From: Acidothermus cellulolyticus 11B
Lineage (GTDB): Bacteria; Actinomycetota; Actinomycetes; Acidothermales; Acidothermaceae
Direction: 5' to 3'
DNA length: 32,000 nucleotides
Assembly (NCBI RefSeq): GCF_000015025.1
Contig: NC_008578.1
Location: forward strand, 1,710,001-1,742,000
Of this stretch, positions 4,100 through 18,681 are shown piece after piece; within the stretch, counting starts at the first letter, position 1; every line of letters begins with the position of its first letter. The notes under the pieces are model-generated. The model did not search any database. It had not been told where the DNA came from and saw only the letters and a list, made by a program, of their open reading frames with translations. A program made the position numbers and the translations under genes.

Positions 4100-4608
4100 G
4101 GATGCTCCTCGAACTCCACCTCGATCTGTCCCGGGCGCACCTCGGCGATGGCGACCGTCCGCTCCTCATACTGCCGGACGCATGCGCCGTCGTCGGTGTA
4201 CTGCCACTCGATGCCGAGCCGCACCTGGTCGCCGGTCACGTCTTGTACGCGCGCGACGACCGGGCCGAGATCCGGCAGCTGCACCCGGACGAGCCGGCCG
4301 ATCGCGCGCCGCCAGTGCCGCGGCTCGACGAGCGGACGGTCAATGCCCGGCGAGCTCACCTCCAGGGTGTAGCTGCGCGGCCCGATGATGGCGTCGGCTT
4401 CGGCGTCGTTGTCGAGAAAATGCGAGATCGCTTGGCTGGCCGCGGCAATCTCGTCGAGCTGCACACCGCCGTCCTTGTCGACGACGATCCGGAGATGAGC
4501 CGACGTGCGGTGATCGAGCAGTGTGACGCCCTCCAGGTCGAGACCCTGGCCGGCGACGACCGGGGCTAGCAACTCGGCCAGTCGTTGAGCACCCGTGCTG
4601 GTCGGCAT
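4096..4608 (-). CDS. rimP: Ribosome maturation factor RimP
   Basis: The C-terminal 170 aa of ORF 4096..4743 ([12 protein letters not shown] motif). Internal ATG at 4608 is preceded by AAGGAG. The upstream extension is Arg/Pro-rich and not protein-like. Confidence 0.85.
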
Positions 4609-8574: not shown

Positions 8575-9750
8575 CTACTGGACGGTGACGATCGGCGCGC
8601 CGACCGCCTGGTCGTCGCCGAAAGCCCCGCTGGCTTGCATCTCTTCGGCAAGCCGCATCGCCTCTTCCAGCAAGGTCTCGACGATCTGCGACTCCGGGAC
8701 GGTCTTGATGACCTCACCGCGGACGAAAATCTGGCCCTTGCCGTTTCCGGACGCGACACCGAGATCCGCCTCACGCGCTTCACCAGGGCCGTTCACCACG
8801 CACCCCATCACCGCAACGCGCAGCGGGAACGGAAATCCTTGCAACCCCGCCTGTACTTCCTCAGCCAGCTTGTACACGTCAACCTGGGCGCGGCCGCAGG
8901 ACGGGCAGGAGACGATGTCGAGCTTGCGTGGACGCAGCCCGAGGGATTCGAGAATCCCGATGCCGACTTTGACTTCCTCCACCGGCGGCGCCGAGAGCGA
9001 GACGCGAATGGTGTCACCAATGCCTTCGGAGAGCAGGATCCCGAAGGCGACGGCGGACTTGATGGTGCCCTGCAGGAGGGGACCAGCCTCGGTGACGCCG
9101 AGGTGCAGCGGATAGTCGGTCTGGGCCGCCAACAGCCGGTATGCCTGCACCATCACCATCGGGTCGTGGTGCTTCACGGAAATCTTGATGTCGTGGAAGT
9201 CGTGCTCCTCAAAGAGACTTGCTTCCCAGAGCGCCGACTCCACGAGGGCTTCGGCGGTCGGCTTTCCGTATTTCTGCAGAATCCGCGGATCGAGCGAGCC
9301 CGCGTTGACGCCGATGCGGATCGGCGTCCCGTGGTCCTTGGCCGCTTGCGCAATTTCTTTGACCTTGTCGTCGAATTTCTTGATGTTCCCGGGATTGACC
9401 CGGACCCCGGCGCAACCGGCCTCGATCGCGGCGAACACGTACTTCGGCTGGAAGTGAATGTCGGCGATGACCGGAATCGGGGATTTCTTCGCGATGATCG
9501 GCAGCGCGTCGGCGTCGTCCTGACTGGGACAGGCGACCCGGACGATGTCGCACCCCGCCGCGGTGAGCTCGGCGATCTGCTGCAGGGTGGCATTGACGTC
9601 GGCGGTCAGTGTCGTGGTCATCGACTGCACGGAGATCGGCGCCCCGCCTCCGACCAGTACGCCGCCCACATTGATCTGACGGGATTTCCGGCGCGGCGCC
9701 AGCGGACTCTTCGCCGGCACCTCAGGTACGCCGAGATTGATGGTCGTCAC
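8575..9750 (-). CDS. ispG: 4-hydroxy-3-methylbut-2-enyl diphosphate synthase (MEP pathway)
   Basis: 391 aa. TIM-barrel region plus SCPSCGR...[10 protein letters not shown] Fe-S cysteines. Conserved dxr-rip1-ispG synteny. Confidence 0.95.
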
Positions 9751-11032: not shown

Positions 11033-12294
11033 CGGCAGCCCCCGATGAGTTCGTCGGCGAGCCGCCGCGCTTCGCGTTCGGCGTCCAACACGTCGGAAAC
11101 GGAGCGGACCGGGACCGGCGGCGCGGCGAGGAATTTCTCCGTCACCGCTGCGACGACGTCCATGATGCCGAGAAAGTCGAGGCGTCCAGCCAGAAAAGCC
11201 GCGACCGCTTCTTCGTTTGCCGCGTTGAACGCGGCCGGCGCGACGCCGCCCGCGGCGCCGACCTGCCGGGCGATGTCGATGGCCGGGAAGGTTTCGCCGT
11301 CCACTGGTTCGAACGTCCATGCCGTTGCCTGCCGCCAATCGCAGCTTGGGATGACCGCAGGGAGCCGGTACGGCCAGGCGAGCGCCAACGCGATCGGCAG
11401 CCGCATATTCGGCGGTGAGCAGTGCGCCACGGTCGAGCCGTCAATGAATTCCACCATGGAATGGACGACGGACTGGGGATGAATAACGACGTCAATGGCG
11501 TCCAAGGAAATGTCGAACAGCAAATGCGCCTCGATCACCTCGAGCGCCTTGTTCACCAGCGTCGCGGAATTGATGGTGATGACCGGCCCCATCCGCCAGG
11601 TGGGATGGGCGAGTGCCTGTTCGGCGGTGACTCCGACAAGATCGGCTCGACGGCGGCCGCGGAACGGCCCCCCGCTCGCAGTGAGAATGAGCCGTCGTAC
11701 TTCGTCGGCACGTCCCGCGCGCAAACACTGGGCGAGGGCGGAGTGCTCGGAATCGACCGGAACGATCTGTCCAGGTTCGGCAATCGCTTTCACCAACGGT
11801 CCGCCGGCGATCAGCGATTCCTTGTTGGCAAGCGCGAGGGTCCGCCCGGCGCGCAGCGCCGCCACCGTCGGAGCAAGGCCGATTGAGCCGGTGATCCCGT
11901 TGAGGACGACGCCGTCGCGTGGTTCGGCGACGGGCAGCGGCCATGCCGCCACTTCGGCGGCAGCCTCCGGCCCGCTGACGATCTTTGGGTGTGGTGCCGC
12001 GCAACCACGCTCGGCCGCTGCGGCGGCCAGGGCATGCTCGACCTCCGCGGGTGTCGCCCCGGTGACTCCGATCACCTCGACGCCGAATTCCACCGCCTGC
12101 CGGGTCAGAAGATCAAGCCGGCTGCCGCTCGCGGCGAGCCCCACCACCCGAAACAGGTCGGGATGGTTGCGGACGACGTCCAGCGCCTGGGTTCCGATCG
12201 ATCCAGTGGAGCCGAGGATCACCAGTGGGCGGACCGGGAGCCTGCCGGCGCGCATCGGCGATGACGGCTGAGGGGCCAGCGGGGACGAGCTCAC
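11029..12294 (-). CDS. dxr: 1-deoxy-D-xylulose 5-phosphate reductoisomerase
   Basis: [19 protein letters not shown]-binding motif and a full-length DXR sequence. GTG at 12294 has GGGGAG 9 nt upstream. ATG at 12255 is an alternative start. Confidence 0.93.
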
Positions 12295-12420
12295 CTGGTC
12301 ATTCTCCCCGATGACCCGGCACCTCGTCTTCGATCACCCCGGTGGGCCGATCCTCGGTGTGGTGGCGACAGTGGGCCCGGTGGGGTCGACAGGGGCGGTC
12401 GGGAGGGCGCGGCAGGCGCG

Positions 12421-12513
12421 GCGGTCGGCCGGCGCCGCGGTCGGCCGGCGGCGATGGCCGGCGCGGCAGGACGCGCGGCTGCGGCGATGGCCGGCGCGGC
12501 AGGACGCGCGGCT
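12421..12513. repeat. Compound tandem repeat upstream of dxr: 16 bp x2 (gcggtcggccggcgcc), then 33 bp x2 (gcggcgatggccggcgcggcaggacgcgcggct)
   Basis: Read directly. The 33-mers occupy 12448-12480 and 12481-12513 and are identical. Confidence 0.9.
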
Positions 12514-12559
12514 GCGGTGCCGGTCAGTCCGGCAACGCGCGCCGCGTCGGTCGCATCGG

Positions 12560-12745
12560 CCGCTACGACGGCGGACACGACCCGTCACGCGGTGCATCAC
12601 CGGAAAAGCGGTCTGCGCTGCGACCACGTCCAGCCCAATGAACAAGATGGTGTTGGACACCGGCAGCTCGGCATCCTCGGAATTGCCCGCCGCACGGCGG
12701 GGATACTGTTCTCAGAACGGTGGACGTCGTCCCTTTTCCTTTTAT
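12560..12745 (-). pseudogene. Decayed third copy of the B membrane module (B3)
   Basis: The start region matches B1, but ATG is ATA (gataaaagg vs gatgaaagg) and 6 nt are missing. After a frame change it reads AAGNSEDAELPVSNTILFIGLDVVAAQTAFPVMHRVTG, which matches AAGNSESAELLVTDTIVLNGVNVVTTQTAFPAMYSITG inside AB2. No continuous frame exists, and the 3' part is replaced by GC-rich repeats. Confidence 0.5.
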
Positions 12746-12820
12746 CGGCAGCAGCTTCCGCTGTAGCTGTAGGAACGTTAATCCTGCGCGACGGGTTAGG
12801 CTCTGACGATTGTCCGGGCA
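12712..12820 (-). repeat. Conserved inter-module element, copy in cassette 3
   Basis: 101/109 aligned nt identical to 14532-14646, with one 6-nt indel. Includes a 34-nt perfect run tgtaggaacgttaatcctgcgcgacgggttaggc. Confidence 0.9.
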
Positions 12821-12825
12821 CGCGG

Positions 12826-13334
12826 TCAGGTCCCTGTCGGCCCGCCCTCCGAAACATCGGCACGCCGGGTTGTATCAGCATGGCGGAGCCGCCAGCGCCG
12901 GCGCAGTCGCAGCCAGGTGCGCACAGCGGCAATTTCCACGGTTACCCAAATAGTCTGGTCCAGGGGCCACAATGTCGCGACGAGAACGACGAGGACCAGA
13001 CCGCCGGAAATCACTCCGACGATCAGCCGTACAGCCTCTGCCGCCAGAGGTAATCCGATGATCCACTTTCGATAGGGCGCGATGTCCGCCCATGCGTCGC
13101 CGCGGAAAAGTTCGCTTGAGACCAAACGACAAGGGCAACTGCGTAACCGGTTACGGCGACAAGCCCGACGGCAAGCGGTGAGCGGAGCGGGTCGCGATAG
13201 AGCGTCACGTTGATCACAAAGACCACGGTATAAAAGAGCCACAAGAGTACGAGAACACGCTTCACCACTTTGGGTGGATCACATTGGCGAATCACAGCCA
13301 GCCCTCCAGCCTTAAGCACGCCCACCGCGCGCAC
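12826..13334 (-). pseudogene. Frameshifted third copy of the A membrane module (A3)
   Basis: N-terminal half lies in the frame of ORF 13023..13334 (...VLVLLWLFYTVVFVINVTLYRDPLRSPLAVGLVAVTGYAVALVV). C-terminal half lies in the frame of ORF 12826..13242 (SSELFRGDAWADIAPYRKWIIGLPLAAEAVRLIVGV...RLRRRWRLRHAD). Joined, they align along the whole of A1. The junction is at about 13115-13135 around an AAA run (13124-13126). One extra base there restores GYAVALVVLVSSELFRGDAW. Confidence 0.7.
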
Positions 13335-14226
13335 GGCGGTCGATCACCGTGAAAACGGCGAGCGTCAGAACCATTGCCGCTGTAAGGACAGCTCCTTGCC
13401 ACGCCACGCTCCTGATAACCGAGAACGTGTCGAAATCAACGAGCGCATTGCCGAAGACAGCGAGAACAGCCAGCCTTCGATACGTCGGAGACCATTCGCG
13501 AAAACGACGGCGTGTCGCAGCGAGAATGTAGATGTTACCGAGTACGACGGGGGTGATCACAGCATGACCCGTGATACTGTACATCGCCGGAAAGGCGGTC
13601 TGCGTTGTGACGACGTTCACTCCATTGAGCACGATGGTGTCGGTTACCAGCAGCTCGGCGCTCTCGGAGTTGCCCGCCGCAGGGAGCCGGCTCTCCGCGT
13701 CTTCCTCGGTATCTGGTTCTCGCGGCGTCCGACGGGAGTCCCGCCACCGGCGAATTTCCGAGATCGCACCATACCCCGCGAGAACGCTGAGCGTCACGAC
13801 TGTAGGAACGAAAACCGTATAGAGCAGGAGACTCCGGTTTGTTTCGCGAGCATGGATGTACATTCCGACACCGAGGACCTTTACGAAAACAAGCGTGGCG
13901 ATGACGTAACGAGAACGCCTGACCGTGCGCCAGAATCGCCCCCAGAGCCGCCAGTAGAATTTCGCCTCTACGTACGACGTCGCCGTGCTAACTACGGAAA
14001 ACAACACAAGCACACCCTCGCGGGAGAGCGAGAAGCGATAATCGCGCACGGGCGTCACCGCGGCGTAGCCGATCCAGCTAAGCGCCCATAACAGGCACAA
14101 ACCAGCGGCAATCCCCGTCGAGCCAGTCGGGCGATGGTGAGGGCGCCACCTCGGTAGGTACACCTTGTCACGCAGGTTTGCTGAGGCGGCACTCCGTCCG
14201 CATCCACTCCGTTGACGCCAGCCCAC
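13312..14226 (-). CDS. Fused A+B multi-pass membrane protein (AB2), unknown family
   Basis: 304-aa ORF. The N-terminal half has the A-module pattern (4 predicted TM segments, FY...R..RR loop, C-terminal RRWRDSRR). An acidic linker PREPDTEEDAES follows. The C-terminal half resembles B1/B3. The start could be GTG 14163 instead of 14226. Confidence 0.65.
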   Translation of the reverse strand: MGWRQRSGCGRSAASANLRDKVYLPRWRPHHRPTGSTGIAAGLCLLWALSWIGYAAVTPVRDYRFSLSREGVLVLFSVVSTATSYVEAKFYWRLWGRFWRTVRRSRYVIATLVFVKVLGVGMYIHARETNRSLLLYTVFVPTVVTLSVLAGYGAISEIRRWRDSRRTPREPDTEEDAESRLPAAGNSESAELLVTDTIVLNGVNVVTTQTAFPAMYSITGHAVITPVVLGNIYILAATRRRFREWSPTYRRLAVLAVFGNALVDFDTFSVIRSVAWQGAVLTAAMVLTLAVFTVIDRRARGGRA

Positions 14227-14262
14227 GATTGAGCTCCGCGAGGTGACCGAACTGCAAGCGAT

Positions 14263-14571
14263 TTATTCGTGGATTCTTTTCCGCCGCTCCCTGATCGTGT
14301 GTACGAGGAGAGTCACGGTATATCCGGCAAGGATCGAGCCAACAATCCCAGGGAGGTAGTCACGACTAGCCACCGCACTCGACGCGCTGACCATGGCAAA
14401 TAGGCCACCGATGAGCAGTGCGACCCGGTCACGCAGCGCCGCTGCGACGACTCGATACCGATCAGGTTGGAGCCGATACCTCAGCCAGAGGTTGTGCACT
14501 ATCAGAATCGTTATCAGGATAGCGTTAAATATCAGAACGGTGGACGTCGTCAAGTGCACTTCTCCTTTCAT
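14263..14571 (-). CDS. Small 3-TM membrane protein, B module (B1), unknown family
   Basis: 102-aa ORF with a hydrophobic pattern and a basic C-terminus RERRKRIHE. AAGGAG lies 8 nt before an in-frame TTG at 14553, which is an alternative start. No comparable plus-strand ORF. Confidence 0.6.
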   Translation of the reverse strand: MKGEVHLTTSTVLIFNAILITILIVHNLWLRYRLQPDRYRVVAAALRDRVALLIGGLFAMVSASSAVASRDYLPGIVGSILAGYTVTLLVHTIRERRKRIHE

Positions 14572-14646
14572 CGGCAGTAGCTTCCGCTGTAGATGTAGGA
14601 ACGTTAATCCTGCGCGACGGGTTAGGCGCTGACGATCGTCTGGGCA
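14532..14646 (-). repeat. Conserved inter-module element, copy in cassette 1 (spans the A1-B1 spacer and the first B1 codons)
   Basis: See 12712-12820. The flanking coding DNA is too diverged to align at nucleotide level. Confidence 0.9.
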
Positions 14647-14656
14647 TAGTTACTTA

Positions 14657-15124
14657 TTATTCCGCCGCACGCATGCCTTTGTAGCGACCATGCGCATCAA
14701 GCTCATGCCTATGTTTGCGCCAGCGAAGCCACGCCCGAGCAAGACGCATAACGAGGATCATCCAGAATACTAGTTCGAATGGCGCGAGCGCTACATAAAT
14801 TGCCGCGTAAGTGAGACTATCAAAGTCGTTAACAGCTACACCTATGACCACTCGTGCAATCTCAAGCGCCACTAGAGTGCGAATGATGCGTCTTCGATAT
14901 GGTTCGATAATAGCCCAGCTTGGGCCGCGATAAAAATCGTTAGAAGCGAGAATTGAAAAAAGAATCGTGTACCCAATCGAGAAACCGAGAATACCCAGAA
15001 TCGGGACAGAGCGATGCGCTCGCAAGTGGCCCGCTAGGACAAACACCCCCGCTATAAAGCTCAACAAGATAGTCACGTATCCGACAATTTTTTGCCACCG
15101 ATGCAATGACAGGTTGGGGGTCAT
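14657..15124 (-). CDS. Small 4-TM membrane protein, A module (A1), unknown family
   Basis: 155-aa ORF with a strong RBS (tagGGAGGcgacATG) and four hydrophobic segments. About 48% GC by hand count. The plus strand is closed by stops here, so the coding strand is unambiguous. Confidence 0.75.
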   Translation of the reverse strand: MTPNLSLHRWQKIVGYVTILLSFIAGVFVLAGHLRAHRSVPILGILGFSIGYTILFSILASNDFYRGPSWAIIEPYRRRIIRTLVALEIARVVIGVAVNDFDSLTYAAIYVALAPFELVFWMILVMRLARAWLRWRKHRHELDAHGRYKGMRAAE

Positions 15125-15180
15125 GTCGCCTCCCTACATATACATGGTAACCGGAACAATGCCTTGAAGCACCTGCACGC

Positions 15181-16080
15181 TCACGTGCAGTAACGGCCGC
15201 TATAGACCTCCGGTGTTATGAACGGTGGTGCTGGCGGGCCGCTGAACAAACGCGGCGCTGACAAGCCAAACTTAATTGCTAGACACTTTCCTAGCCACTG
15301 AGCAGCGGCGGCATAAACGGTCACCGTCGAGGACAAATCCCCTATCGCTTCGGTAGGCGGAAGTATTGCGAGAAGATATTGATAATAACCATAGCTCAGG
15401 CCGTACGCGGCGATGAATGCGGTTTCTTCTTTGTTGAAGTAGATGGTGCCGGTGATGATGCCCCAGGTGATTTTGGGGTCGGCGGTGATGGGGTAGGTGG
15501 CGGTGGTTGGTGGGGTGATGGTCTGGGTGAGGCTGGTGGGGGTGATGGTGTAGGTGGTGGGGATGGGGTTACCGGCCGCGTCGTGTGCCCACGGTGCGGC
15601 GATGAAGGCGACGGGCTGGTGGTGGGAGTCAAGGACGAGTGCACCGCCGTCGGCGGTTGGTGCAAGCGTCTCCCCAGGCGTGGTGATCGTGAAGGTCACG
15701 CTGGTCGGAGCTGTGGAGTCTTCCAGGATGATCAGGTCTTGTTCGCCGTGGGGAATGCGCTGCCGGGCCAGGTCCAGATGCGGCAGCGCGTCGGGGGTGA
15801 CAGTCAGCGTGGTGTCCACGGTGACCGGAACAGCGTTACTGCCCTGCACGACCAGCGACGGTGCACTCCGCGGTGGTGTATCAACATCAGCCGGATTGAT
15901 CGAACGGTGCAACGGTCCGAGCTCATCGGCCACCCGGTGCGCGTGCGCTACACGCCCAGGGTCCGAGCCGGGTTGCGCCGCAAACGCGGTCCCCTCAAAC
16001 CCAACACACACACAGCGGTCACGGTGCCCACCAGGGCGAGTCTGCCACGCATCGACATCCCTTCCATCTCCAACACGCAT
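15181..16080 (-). CDS. Secreted-type Thr/Pro-rich protein of unknown family; the signal peptide is encoded in a different frame upstream (16015-16067)
   Basis: 299-aa ORF from ATG 16080 with no signal peptide of its own. ORF 15948..16130 in another frame encodes M(S)MRGRLALVGTVTAVCVLGL, a signal-peptide-like N-terminus preceded by GGAAGGG. The two frames meet at a (GT)5.5 tract. The mature part contains AAPWAHDAAGNPIPTTYTITPTSLTQTITPPTTATYPITADP followed by a lower-GC C-terminal region of about 95 aa. Confidence 0.65.
   Translation of the reverse strand: MRVGDGRDVDAWQTRPGGHRDRCVCVGFEGTAFAAQPGSDPGRVAHAHRVADELGPLHRSINPADVDTPPRSAPSLVVQGSNAVPVTVDTTLTVTPDALPHLDLARQRIPHGEQDLIILEDSTAPTSVTFTITTPGETLAPTADGGALVLDSHHQPVAFIAAPWAHDAAGNPIPTTYTITPTSLTQTITPPTTATYPITADPKITWGIITGTIYFNKEETAFIAAYGLSYGYYQYLLAILPPTEAIGDLSSTVTVYAAAAQWLGKCLAIKFGLSAPRLFSGPPAPPFITPEVYSGRYCT
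16004..16014. repeat. Dinucleotide repeat acacacacaca, i.e. (GT)5.5 on the coding strand, at the signal-peptide / mature-protein frame junction
   Basis: Read directly. Deleting one GT unit or adding 1 nt joins the two frames. Confidence 0.9.
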
Positions 16081-16097
16081 GGGAACGTTCCCATGCG
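16076..16097. promoter_or_regulatory. 22-bp perfect palindrome CGCATGGGAACGTTCCCATGCG in the 5' leader of the secreted-protein gene
   Basis: Self-complementary over all 22 nt (checked base by base). Lies about 10-30 nt downstream of the predicted transcription start. Each arm carries an ATG: 16094 in the signal-peptide frame and 16080 in the mature frame. Confidence 0.8.
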
Positions 16098-16113
16098 ATC
16101 ACAAGCGATCCCG

Positions 16114-16143
16114 ATAATAGAAAACCGCACACGCCAGTGTCAA
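16114..16143 (-). promoter_or_regulatory. Near-consensus housekeeping-sigma promoter: TTGACA, 18-nt spacer, TATTAT
   Basis: Minus strand: TTGACA (16143-16138), spacer ctggcgtgtgcggttttc, TATTAT (16119-16114). It is an AT-rich patch in GC-rich surroundings, upstream of the secreted-protein gene. Confidence 0.6.
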
Positions 16144-16237
16144 GACAGCCAGCAGGCGACCGATCCGTCCCCAGGACGAGGTCAAGCGCGTCATCGAGAA
16201 AGTGTCAAGACGGCCGACGGGTGACCGATCCGCCCCC
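16136..16237. repeat. Two 37-nt imperfect direct repeats (16136-16172 and 16201-16237, 31/37 identical), each containing a TTGACA on the minus strand
   Basis: agtgtcaagacagccagcaggcgaccgatccgtcccc vs agtgtcaagacggccgacgggtgaccgatccgccccc. Period 65 bp. Confidence 0.85.
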
Positions 16238-16250
16238 CGTCAGCGCACCA

Positions 16251-16270
16251 GCCTGCCGCCATCGGCAGGC
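16251..16270 (-). terminator. Candidate intrinsic terminator hairpin after the MMPL gene (8-bp GC stem, 4-nt loop, no U-tract)
   Basis: gcctgccg-ccat-cggcaggc, about 110 nt downstream of the MMPL stop. Confidence 0.35.
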
Positions 16271-16380
16271 AATTGGCCTCCACCATGCGCAAAAGTGAGC
16301 GTCAGATTCCCCTTGCGGCCGACGAGACGGTCAATACGCCGTTGCGCATCGACTCGGAAGCGACTGCGGATATCACGCCG

Positions 16381-18681
16381 TCAACGGAGCTGGTGATTCT
16401 CCGCTATGCGGGACTGCTCCTCCCCCGACGTTCTGTCAGACAGCGCGGCGAGCGGCTCGCCTCCCATTGGCGGTTCACCGGCCGCCAGTACGGCTATTGG
16501 TGCTTCGCGAAATGCGTGGCGTTGCCACCACCGCTCCAGCGGAGCAGGAGCCCACCAGTTGACCCGGCCGAGAAGGCGCATGACAGCAGGAACAAGCAGT
16601 GCGCGCACCACGGTGGCGTCAACGGCGATGGCCAGCGCCATTCCAACACCGAGCAATTTGAGGGTGGTGATCCGAGAGGTCGCGAATAGGCCGATGACGA
16701 CGATGAGGAGCAGGGCCGCCGACGTGATGATGCGGCCGCTGCGCTGGAGCCCGACCGCCACCGCGGCGGCATTCCGCTCACCCGGATTGACGTTGTCCGC
16801 AGTCACGTCCCACTCCTCGCGAATGCGGCTGAGCAGGAAGACCTCGTAGTCCATGGATAATCCGAAGACCACCGCGAGAAGCAGGATCGGGTCGGTGGCG
16901 TCAAGGTAACCGAGCGGGCTGAAGTCCAACAGGCGCGCAAGATGCCCGTCTTGGAAAATCCAGGTAATCGCCCCGAAGGACGCCGCAATGGAAATCGTAT
17001 TCATGACGATGGCTTTCAACGGCAGAACAACCGACCCGAAGGCGAGGAAGAGCAGGAAAGCCATCGCCACGGCGATCACGGTGAGCATCCATGGCAACAC
17101 GTGGCCGATGCTGTGCAGCTGATCGACGAGGAATGCTGTCAAGCCGCCGACGAGCACCCGGCTCCCCGCAGGCGGCTGGACCGCGCGAACCTCGGCGAGG
17201 GTGTGCCGAGCGGCGGACGAGATCGGATCCCCGTGGTAATCGACCTCGATCAGAGCGTTGTGCCCGCGGACCGCAGCGACATGCGCACCCGTCGTCCCCG
17301 GAACCTGGGCCAGCCTGTCGGCGTAGGCAAGCAAACTTTGCTGGTCCGGGAAGTTCTCGACGACGACGTCCATGGGTGTCGTTTCGTTGCCGGGAAAATC
17401 CCGCGCCAATGCGTCGCTGGTCACGCGGCCAGGCGCGTTGGCGGGCAGGACCTTCGCGGTGTACCCGCCGAATGTGACGTTCCGGAACGGCAACGCCATC
17501 ACGGCGAGCACGACGACAATGGGAATTGCGTAGATCAACGGGCGGCGCATCACAGAACGGGCGAGCCGGTACCAGAAACCGCCCGACGACGGCACCGGCG
17601 TCGCGGACGCACTCTGCCGCGCAGCAAGCCGCCGCGCTCTGTGGTGCGGACCGAACCACGGCACGTGGAGCGCATCCACCCGGCGGCCCAGGACGGCAAG
17701 AATAGCGGGGAGAATAGTCAACGCGGCAAGAACATCCAACAGCACGACCGCGACTCCGCCGTACCCCATGGACCGGAGAAAATCCTCCGGAAATAAGACC
17801 AGTGAGGCGGTCGACACGGCAACGGTCACGCCGGAGAACGCAACGGTACGTCCTGCGGTCGCCAATGTCCGGCGCAGCGCCGTCTCGACGTCCGCGGTCC
17901 GGCTCATTTCTTCGCGGAACCGACTCACAACGAAGAGCGCGTAATCGATCGCGAGGCCAAGGCCCAGCATCGTCACGAGATTTTGCGCAAAAATCGAGAC
18001 GTGCGTGACAATCGTCAGGAATCGCAGGATGGCGAATGCCCCGACGATTCCACAGATTCCGACGATGACCGGTAAGGCTGCGGAAACGACGCTCCCGAAG
18101 ATGATGAGCAGGAGGATCAGCGTCGTCGGCAGAGACAAAGCCTCCGCGCGCTTGAGATCCCGGCTGACCTGCCCACTTATTTCTTTGTTCAGCGGCTGCG
18201 CTCCAGCATAACCGACGGAAATGCCACGGGTCTGCAGCTCGGCCAACCGCTGCTTGACCACCTGGAGCGCGCTCGCTTTCTGCGCATCGGTCGTGCCGGC
18301 CAATTCCAATGTCACGTAAGTGGAACGACCATCGGTGGAGATGAGCCGACGCTGGCCGGTGTTCCAATAACTGAGGTAGGACGGAACAACACTCTTCGGC
18401 AGATCGTGAAGCGCTCCCACGATGGCGGCGGCATTCGCCGGGCTCGTGATCGGTTCACGGCTCGTGAAGAGCACAGTCGCGTCGGACGACGGCAGATGCA
18501 GGACGTCGGTAATGGCATTCGCTGCCTGCACGGACTCGCTATGGGGGTCGTAATAGCCCCCACTTGACAAACGCTTGGTGACGTCGCTGCCCCAGAGCGC
18601 GGCCAACGCCAGGAGCACGATACCGATAATGATCACCAGACGGCGGCGGTGATACATCGCCCTGCCGAGGCGGTCGAACAT
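16381..18681 (-). CDS. MMPL family RND-type membrane transporter
   Basis: ORF 16381..18702. I place the start at ATG 18681 because MFDRLGRAMYHRRRLVIIIGIVLLA matches the usual MmpL N-terminus (MF..WGR.VY..R..VIG) and a promoter sits immediately upstream. Twelve-TM architecture with two periplasmic loops. GC is about 60-62%, below the backbone. Confidence 0.9.
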   Translation of the reverse strand: MFDRLGRAMYHRRRLVIIIGIVLLALAALWGSDVTKRLSSGGYYDPHSESVQAANAITDVLHLPSSDATVLFTSREPITSPANAAAIVGALHDLPKSVVPSYLSYWNTGQRRLISTDGRSTYVTLELAGTTDAQKASALQVVKQRLAELQTRGISVGYAGAQPLNKEISGQVSRDLKRAEALSLPTTLILLLIIFGSVVSAALPVIVGICGIVGAFAILRFLTIVTHVSIFAQNLVTMLGLGLAIDYALFVVSRFREEMSRTADVETALRRTLATAGRTVAFSGVTVAVSTASLVLFPEDFLRSMGYGGVAVVLLDVLAALTILPAILAVLGRRVDALHVPWFGPHHRARRLAARQSASATPVPSSGGFWYRLARSVMRRPLIYAIPIVVVLAVMALPFRNVTFGGYTAKVLPANAPGRVTSDALARDFPGNETTPMDVVVENFPDQQSLLAYADRLAQVPGTTGAHVAAVRGHNALIEVDYHGDPISSAARHTLAEVRAVQPPAGSRVLVGGLTAFLVDQLHSIGHVLPWMLTVIAVAMAFLLFLAFGSVVLPLKAIVMNTISIAASFGAITWIFQDGHLARLLDFSPLGYLDATDPILLLAVVFGLSMDYEVFLLSRIREEWDVTADNVNPGERNAAAVAVGLQRSGRIITSAALLLIVVIGLFATSRITTLKLLGVGMALAIAVDATVVRALLVPAVMRLLGRVNWWAPAPLERWWQRHAFREAPIAVLAAGEPPMGGEPLAALSDRTSGEEQSRIAENHQLR

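Follow-up and report, generated by a model that had tools for sequence, protein, structure and literature searches.

A low-GC island beside dxr in Acidothermus cellulolyticus 11B as a putative polymorphic toxin/immunity locus

We have analysed a stretch of 32,000 nucleotides (nt) from Acidothermus cellulolyticus 11B (contig NC_008578.1, positions 1,710,001 to 1,742,000; hereafter the window), in which an island of low guanine-plus-cytosine (GC) content lies at a locus with MMPL, ACT-domain, dxr, rip1 and gcpE genes as neighbours. On the minus strand the island carries an open reading frame (ORF) of 299 amino acids (aa), which by exact-sequence look-up is Acel_1529, together with the genes for the membrane proteins A1 (WP_148204571), B1 (Acel_1528) and AB2 (Acel_1527) and the remains of others; all four proteins are annotated 'hypothetical protein'. 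Every ORF that a previous sequence-only reading of the window had described was found, on the minus strand and where it had been placed. Acel_1529 and its copies in other strains are called toxin-type genes here, after the interpretation proposed below, and CT denotes their C-terminal module. With C standing for the family of AB2, the array in 11B runs toxin-CT1, A1, relic-B1-C, A3 (frameshifted), relic-B/C remnant, dxr (Table 1).

The dip in GC content reported before is present (GC 0.50-0.61 at about 12.6-15.4 kb, from about 0.65-0.72), with the flanks being at 63-68% and not at 70% or more as had been estimated. The GC content at third codon positions (GC3) is 0.51 in A1, 0.63 in B1, 0.68 in AB2 and 0.55-0.59 in A3, against 0.77-0.78 for dxr, for MMPL and for the first two-thirds (5' side) of Acel_1529. 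The drop starts near position 15420 and thus within Acel_1529, not at the end of that gene, GC3 being 0.55 over its final 80 codons.

Table 1. Features of the island on the minus strand of the window, and the corresponding arrays in related strains (TM, transmembrane segments; SD, Shine-Dalgarno sequence; RBS, ribosome-binding site).
Feature	Position (strand)	Remarks
Promoter-like site TTGACA-18-TATTAT	16114..16143 (-)	-35 at 16143-16138, 18-nt spacer, -10 at 16119-16114
Perfect 22-bp palindrome CGCATGGGAACGTTCCCATGCG	16076..16097 (-)	between the -10 box and the start codon
Signal-peptide coding segment (MSMRGRLALVGTVTAV...)	16015..16058 (-)	frame -1 relative to the main ORF
(TG)5 tract	16005..16014 (-)	where the signal-peptide frame meets the mature-protein frame
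Constant part of Acel_1529	15421..16004 (-)	beta-rich N-domain, core 15472-15843, ends YPITADP
Junction homology block	15421-15508 (-)	codes for ADPKITWGIITGTIYFNKEET
Variable low-GC C-terminal module CT1, 'long' type	15181..15420 (-)	ends ...GKCLAIKFG...PFITPEVYSGRYCT
A1, 155 aa, 4 TM	14657..15124 (-)	putative cognate immunity protein for CT1; 56 nt downstream of Acel_1529
Relic 3' end of a 'short-CT' toxin-type gene	14568..14646 (-)	...RSYIYSGSYCR, then stop; in-frame stops upstream, then the B1 RBS
B1 (Acel_1528), 96 aa, 3 TM	14263..14553 (-)	putative orphan immunity-type gene; TTG start 14553
C family (AB2, Acel_1527), 304 aa	13312..14226 (-)	about 7 TM by comparison with the L081 homologue; travels with B
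A3 pseudogene, A family	12826..13319 (-)	orphan; 1-nt deletion inside 13100-13113
Second relic short-CT 3' end	12733..12820 (-)	...RSYSYSGSCCR, then stop
B/C remnant (formerly 'B3')	12549..12731 (-)	B start 12712-12731 and internal C fragment 12576-12697
Out-of-frame copies elsewhere	L082 ~9160-9245; L083 ~600-690, ~4210-4300; L081 ~2655-2735	
L091 array		toxin-CT2, A167, A3, relic-B1-C, A3, relic-B/C remnant, dxr
L082 array		toxin-CT2, A167, A3, relic-B/C remnant, dxr
L084/L085 array		toxin-CT3, A3-type, relic-B1-C, A3-type ...
L083 array		MMPL, toxin-shortCT, B96, C283, ..., second toxin-type gene 94.6% identical to the window's

Acel_1529 is built of a constant part and a variable one. A beta-rich domain ending in YP(I/V)xADP is common to all its homologues, both the close ones in metagenomes (64-74% identical) and the distant ones in other Actinobacteria (33-45% identical over about one third of the protein). 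The nucleotide identity from copy to copy is 66-95% in the N-domain, 100% in the 75-nt block 15434-15508 (compared across the window, L082 and L083a) and 20-55% downstream of it, and GC3 falls from 0.77 to 0.55 at the same junction. This sharp collapse of identity together with the GC3 drop supports the exchange of C-termini between strains. Moreover, the synonymous divergence (dS) of the N-domain between two strains is 0.44 (window 15421-15999 versus L082 9399-9773), which is three- to nine-fold above that of the flanks (MMPL 0.14, dxr 0.05) and fits old divergent alleles having been moved between strains by recombination. In the alignment of CT1 two Cys residues are invariant, which would fit an exported protein, and the CT is predicted by AlphaFold2 (AF2) as helices between beta strands. 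With the model of the full protein, Foldseek against PDB returned generic beta-sandwich matches only (E ≥ 0.007), and a PDB sequence search with the profile of the toxin-type family returned nothing.

The other genes of the island belong to three membrane-protein families, namely A (4 TM), B (3 TM) and C (about 7 TM), the hydrophobic segments being counted by hydropathy only. The four segments of A1 and the three of B1 are as previously described. The kinship of A1 and A3 that had been claimed is upheld: by Smith-Waterman alignment z is 17-19 with 0 of 1000 shuffles reaching the score, and by blastp A1 is 32-35% identical to the intact A3 orthologues over about 130 residues (E about 1e-12). 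The pairwise identity among A1, A167 and A3 is 29-43%, and two features pointed out before, an E-x-x-R pair within hydrophobic segment three and a basic tail, are invariant in 4/4 aligned A proteins. A1 is intact and is preceded by a good SD sequence. Its only match among 5.8 billion proteins, in a word-indexed search, is itself in A. cellulolyticus; with the profile of the A family a PDB sequence search gave nothing and a metagenome scan gave only the already known contig, so that the family seems to be confined to the Acidothermus lineage in the searched collections. A3 is indeed frameshifted in 11B, as is seen by comparing it with intact orthologues of 163 aa in three genomes (L082, L084 and, twice, L091). 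For B1, a length of 102 aa had been given; since the ATG at 14571 falls in the stop region of the relic upstream, TTG 14553 is the most likely start, as in RefSeq and in the orthologues. B1 is 50% identical to B96 (96 aa) and 32% identical to B115 (115 aa), both from L081. AB2 shares 35% identity with the 283-aa protein that is encoded after B96 in L081 and L083, a simple hydropathy scan showing 4 segments in AB2 and 7 in the L081 homologue, and a search with AB2 gave one metagenome cluster only (96% identical). The ratio of nonsynonymous to synonymous substitution rates (dN/dS) is 0.35-0.57 for B1 and C (C 0.38), 0.89 for the A3-type genes and 0.13-0.17 for dxr and MMPL, so that B1 and C are still under constraint.

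Two of the gaps in the array hold the ends of former genes. A repeat of 88-110 nt before B1 (14532-14646) recurs before the gene that had been called B3 (12712-12820), with 92-100% identity, the relic itself at 14568-14646 being 92% identical to 12733-12820. As a search of Rfam over 11-17 kb gave no match, this conserved 'intergenic' repeat is not a known RNA. It aligns with live gene ends in L081 and L083, which read ...YGYRGSYCQ or ...YDYRGSYCK up to the stop codon and are followed by an SD sequence and a B-family gene. Both copies in the window are interrupted by in-frame stops farther upstream, and the repeat is therefore the dead 3' end of a second, short-CT paralogue of Acel_1529. B3, which had been described as a decayed B, has only about 20 nt of a B start, the rest being a C-family piece that matches AB2 residues 183-220. 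L082 and L091 carry the same B/C remnant, so the deletion must be older than the separation of these two strains from that of the window.

Four Acidothermus genomes or contigs with flanks 94-98% identical to the window were compared, and with these near-identical flanks they carry four different gene arrays (Table 1). In them the CT and the next gene vary together. Long CTs precede A genes in 3/3 cases (CT1-A1, CT2-A167 and CT3-A3-type, the A3-type gene in L084 sitting straight after this third CT variant), and short CTs precede B genes in 2/2 cases (one before B96, with C, and the other before B115, each of which directly follows a full short-CT toxin-type gene in L081). L001 and L002 are the closest other genomes of the Acidothermaceae (dxr 68-69% identical), and in them MMPL stops about 70 bp short of dxr and nothing intervenes. 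Since MMPL abuts dxr there, the 4-kb block as a whole, Acel_1529 included, was inserted in the Acidothermus lineage. The notion of an accessory, fast-changing island thus agrees with the arrays differing between strains and with L001 and L002 being without it. Of the marks of a horizontally acquired island, the atypical composition and the absence from relatives were found while mobility genes and a tRNA site were not: there is no tRNA in the window, in line with the earlier reading, which saw none adjacent, and at the syntenic locus L082 the genes nearby include no integrase or transposase. It is also observed that some Acidothermus-like strains, represented by the metagenome contigs L083 and L081, have two full toxin-type genes per array, that L081 has an array copy beside another neighbourhood (Lactamase_B, smpB, ftsX), and that two small ORFs (79 and 54 aa, minus strand) are found repeatedly between the modules of L083 and L081.

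The constant domain has many relatives. A profile of the N-domain only, searched against 1.84 billion representative proteins (clusters at 50% identity), matches 7293 clusters at E ≤ 1e-3 and 4452 at E ≤ 1e-10; the members are typically of about 300 aa with the domain at residues ~95-225, and the domain is in neither Pfam nor NCBIfam. The tails were analysed in the best 150 of these 7293 relatives. The parts following ADP, compared in 142 relatives, have lengths of 60-125 aa and make up 23 classes without relation to one another, 56 tails being of the window's class, 49 of the DUF2599 type and 13 being singletons; most of the family's tails are unnamed. By a crude hydropathy rule, a signal-peptide-like N-terminus is present in 93/141 relatives. 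In the distant relatives the tails of the window's class consist of TWGIITGTIYFN..., then helices, G-x-C-L-x-I-K and Y-x-G-x-Y-C. For three distant homologues with this class of CT, the next gene codes for a small membrane protein of 82-91 aa; the one of 91 aa has 2-3 hydrophobic segments, that of 90 aa has 3 and that of 82 aa has 2. B1 and the 91-aa partner have no sequence similarity (z=0.1) and are alike in topology alone. The DUF2599 (PF10783) domain is carried by 41/145 relatives, and the DUF2599 proteins of Actinobacteria have the same N-domain and YPxxADP junction as Acel_1529 and a different C-terminal module, i.e., DUF2599 is another C-terminal module of the N-domain family. Proteins with DUF2599 are expanded in mycobacteria (PMC3388012). 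One long family member has Amidase_6. Several tails from small classes or singletons (those of P0054, P0151, P0066, P0051 and P0084) are Lys/Trp-rich amphipathic stretches of 60-90 aa, which resemble leaderless class II bacteriocins by eye, with no Pfam bacteriocin model matching them.

We propose that the island is a Sec-dependent polymorphic toxin (bacteriocin-like)/immunity locus, in which one of the membrane immunity genes is cognate to the toxin and several others are orphans, and we hold this to be probable, with moderate confidence. The proposal is made because a constant N-domain is joined to a low-GC CT that is swapped at the junction, the next gene co-varies with the CT, and dead ends and extra partner genes lie downstream. 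The sequence-only reading had called the function of the array undescribed; the N-domain/CT architecture, the co-variation of CT and partner and the dead toxin ends make up the signature of a polymorphic toxin/immunity system, for which many unrelated CTs, replacement at the junction, a co-varying partner, orphan fragments and orphan partner genes are characteristic and are all found here.

In the model, Acel_1529 would be exported by Sec, as a constant beta-rich carrier that ends at the conserved YPITADP junction and bears an exchangeable C-terminal 'warhead' of about 95 aa, made of small-residue-rich helices between beta strands and probably stapled by a Cys-Cys bond. The warhead would attack the cytoplasmic membrane of related bacteria, and A1, as the cognate immunity protein, would block it within the membrane. 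Of the parts that we infer, namely export, toxicity, the membrane target and the protection by A, B and C, the membrane as the target and as the place of neutralisation is suggested by all the partners of this CT class being small polytopic membrane proteins. The remainder of the array would be left over from earlier cassettes: B1 and C with the dead toxin 3' end that precedes them; A3, now frameshifted, which would be the partner of a different warhead in another strain; and the other dead toxin end, to which a B/C fragment is fused. New low-GC warhead-plus-immunity cassettes would come in when the 100% conserved junction block and the downstream repeats recombine, and the outcome would be a different array in every strain.

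Several observations weigh against the toxin/immunity proposal. No recognised toxin or immunity domain was found in the window by scans with Pfam, NCBIfam and PHROGs/PADLOC. The predicted local distance difference test (pLDDT) score of the AF2 model is 63 for the whole protein, 70-90 for the N-domain and 69 for the CT modelled alone, which is medium confidence. With the CT model, Foldseek against PDB gave nothing under E=0.65, neither this model nor that of the full protein matched the fold of a known pore-former or bacteriocin, and a Kyte-Doolittle scan showed no strongly hydrophobic 19-residue segment in the window CT. The pairing of CT and partner in the Acidothermus lineage is seen in five pairs only, a small sample. 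Moreover, P0019, the sole DUF2599-type member with a readable downstream flank (the contig of another, P0014, ends right past the gene), has no co-directional gene downstream, from which it follows that the whole N-domain family need not be toxins. Tails resembling DUF4258, found in 2/145 members, count both ways: they score 21 bits, under the Pfam cut-off of 25, yet match the profile over its full length, and directly after one of the two genes, overlapping it, comes a DUF2283 gene (51.6 bits), so that a known kind of toxin/partner pair may occur in the same architecture, DUF4258 and DUF2283 presumably forming a toxin-antitoxin pair. DUF4258 is a toxin family of the RelE/ParE superfamily with the BECR fold (PMC11980606).

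The reading frame of Acel_1529 is a further point against the proposal. The gene had been described as coding for a secreted-type protein, and the 299-aa ORF is without the in-frame N-terminal signal peptide that is expected for Sec export; a good signal peptide, MSMRGRLALVGTVTAVCV, sits in the -1 frame and ends at the (TG)5 tract. With this frame split as sequenced, the toxin-type gene of 11B is unable to make the signal-peptide fusion. A tract of (TG)4, one unit fewer, or of (TG)7 would read ...TAVCVGFEGTAFA/AQP, a normal Sec signal peptide, and the distant homologues of Acel_1529 have normal signal peptides in frame. The same out-of-frame state is present in 5/5 copies (window, L082, two in L083, and L081), with (TG)5 in 4 and (TG)8 in 1, the three units more leaving the offset unchanged. 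In all five copies both reading frames are open. Before the tract, the substitutions between paralogues are synonymous or hydrophobic-conservative in the signal-peptide frame (LALVGTVTAV versus LVVVSTLTAV), and read in the other frame they are radical; past the tract it is the main frame that the substitutions respect. Because this pattern is frame-specific, the signal-peptide and the mature segments both appear to be maintained as coding. The sequence 3' of the tract folds no better than its shuffles (z -0.1 to -1.2), giving no sign of a frameshift-stimulating structure. The frame split may be the 'off' state of slipped-strand phase variation, it may be bridged by ribosomes shifting +2/-1 at the UG repeat, or it may result from shared decay.

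By contrast, the locus could be a cell-envelope module, in which a surface or wall protein docks by its CT onto its own small membrane partner (A, B or C), with the hypervariability arising from the pressure of phages or other surface-recognising agents. It would be expected then that the partners are membrane proteins, that the CT is not clearly membrane-spanning and that no toxin fold is recognised, and the DUF2599-type member without a partner gene would be accommodated as well. This explanation, which we consider unlikely, leaves unexplained the orphan partner genes without an exported protein and the dead toxin 3' ends, the keeping by strains of partners for the C-termini of other strains, and the occurrence of the DUF4258-like/DUF2283 pair in the same architecture.

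It could also be that the island is a decaying remnant without present function, an old insertion under erosion, to which the frame split at (TG)5, the loss of one nt from A3, the two relic 3' ends with the B/C fragment and the dN/dS of the A3-type genes would all conform. If this were true throughout, the dN/dS of B1 and C, the intact A1 with its good SD sequence and the continuing exchange of cassettes between strains would be hard to understand, and the frame-specific substitutions in all five toxin-type copies argue for a maintained arrangement; we regard this explanation as having rather little chance of being right.

The sequence-only reading had proposed three tandem diverging copies of a two-gene A+B cassette, one of them fused into AB2. 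A1 and A3 are homologous, and there is a real repeat, which consists of the segment A3-relic-B-C, occurs twice in L091 and has its second copy internally deleted in all strains. The fusion is not borne out: A versus the N-terminal half of AB2 is not significant (hhalign E=0.09, shuffle z=1.9), B1 versus the C-terminal half gives z=2.2 (hhalign E=0.2), and in the C family as a whole a weak B-like signal in the C-terminal part is reached by one pair only, B96 versus AB283 (z=5.0). By these comparisons AB2 is not detectably A-like and is marginally B-like, and its C-terminal half may still be distantly related to B. In addition, the third 'B' is mostly a C-family fragment, and A1 came with the CT1 cassette and not by tandem duplication, other strains having a different CT and a different A at that place. 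We thus find the three-cassette scheme very unlikely; overall, the earlier observations were confirmed in part and their interpretation is supported in part. As for a prophage or anti-phage defence fragment, which the low GC content, the small membrane proteins and the strain variability might bring to mind, it is highly improbable with one noise-level PHROGs/PADLOC match only, no integrase, transposase or tRNA, and a key gene from a cellular exported-protein family.

It is noted that, as stated before, no named family fits any gene of the island among Pfam, NCBIfam, PADLOC and PHROGs. Matches to MerT, DUF4305, Rv2743c, the urea transporter, SLATT, cytochrome o subunit IV and a PADLOC '4TM' effector are at noise level, far under the cut-offs and typical of TM composition. 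No functional study was found in the literature on DUF2599, the Acel locus tags or DUF2283.

Upstream of the toxin-type gene, the promoter-like site that had been pointed out scores 11/12 and is the sole such site in 12200-16450. Shuffled sequence has 1.3 such sites on average, so that the count alone is not significant; the site is plausible because of its position upstream of the signal-peptide ORF. The palindrome reported before is perfect over its 22 bp, its core CATGGGAACGTTCCCATG being also in the L083b copy with a different sequence there in L082 and L083a, and it could be an operator or a hairpin in the 5' untranslated region. Note also that two 37-nt direct repeats (16136-16172 and 16201-16237) lie 65 nt apart, are 84% identical and each contain GTCAAGAC/TTGACA; the proximal one provides the -35 box of the predicted promoter, and the pair could be duplicated promoter or regulator sites. 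At the other end of the island, a segment of about 152 nt with about 76% GC (~12401-12552) lies between the C-family remnant and the dxr start, in the dxr leader. Within it, a unit of 33 nt is perfectly duplicated in tandem (12448-12513) and one of 16 nt occurs as a tandem pair (12410-12441); the segment has CGACC repeats at its borders and is absent from L082 and L091. Elsewhere, the GC content reaches 0.76-0.80 within positions 1800-2400, the maximum of the window.

The toxin/immunity proposal places the locus beside known systems. Polymorphic toxin systems were defined by Zhang, Aravind and colleagues, including Sec-dependent ones such as MafB/MAFB-N, in which a lineage-specific constant N-domain follows the signal peptide (PMC3482391), and the island resembles them in the constant N-terminus, the hypervariable CT, the exchange at a conserved junction and the partner immediately downstream, as well as in the orphan CT fragments, the extra partner genes downstream and the lower-GC cassettes (PMC3482391). 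Unlike the named polymorphic toxins, the N-domain, the CT class and the partners of the island match no Pfam or NCBIfam domain, and Acel_1529 is small (about 300 aa), without repeats, a releasing peptidase or a dedicated secretion system. The partners are polytopic membrane proteins, in contrast to the usual soluble immunity proteins of the SUKH/SuFu type.

Pore-forming colicins have immunity proteins with 3-4 TM. With these and with the ionophore toxins of contact-dependent inhibition (CDI), which have integral-membrane CdiI (PMC11630599), the island would share a helical CT paired with a small polytopic membrane protein. The cognate pairs are only about 30% identical within a class (PMC11630599), which is comparable to the 29-43% among A1, A167 and A3. 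Unlike them, the island has no homology or fold match and no CdiB/CdiA or colicin translocation apparatus; its CT, with a length of about 80-120 aa, has beta strands on either side and a pair of Cys, unlike the five-helix or ten-helix bundle, and its host is a Gram-positive-type actinobacterium. With TspA/TsaI of the Staphylococcus aureus type VII secretion system (T7SS) the likeness would be a membrane-targeting toxin, which is established for TspA and only suggested here, that is neutralised by a membrane immunity protein (again suggested here), with strain-variable strings of non-identical immunity paralogues by the toxin gene (PMC9484751). Unlike TspA/TsaI, there is no LXG/WXG domain and there are no T7SS genes here, a Sec signal peptide being there instead; there is no sequence similarity, and unrelated partner families A, B and C are interleaved with dead toxin ends. 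By this analogy, the closest functional counterparts of the island would be the TspA/TsaI arrays and the CDI ionophores with integral-membrane CdiI.

We further put forward, tentatively and as a possibility that we would not expect to hold in full, that Acel_1529 stands for a class of Sec-exported pro-bacteriocins in Actinobacteria that is very large and has not been described, and that in Acidothermus its production is gated by the (TG)n tract. Such a class may take in the mycobacterium-expanded DUF2599 proteins and count, at 50% identity, no fewer than 7000 clusters, and its members may have a beta-sandwich carrier ending in YPxxADP with interchangeable warheads of 60-125 aa, one major warhead class being membrane-active and blocked by tiny, lineage-specific polytopic immunity proteins. 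The (TG)n tract could be a phase-variation switch or a site of +2/-1 ribosomal slippage, and the frame split conserved at this dinucleotide repeat is a candidate for bet-hedged toxin expression.

If the toxin interpretation is wrong, the locus is still a clean case of cassette turnover beside an essential operon. If it is true, four genes of a thermophile that is used in biotechnology, three of them 'hypothetical' and one annotated late, would be a strain-discrimination weapon locus, i.e., a known kind of competition locus that is built here from protein families named in no database. The compact toxin/immunity pairs, with a CT of about 95 aa and a membrane partner of 96-167 aa, would then be suited to studying the specificity of membrane-embedded immunity, and there would be a large unnamed family of small Sec-dependent toxins across the Actinobacteria for which no specialised secretion system is needed.

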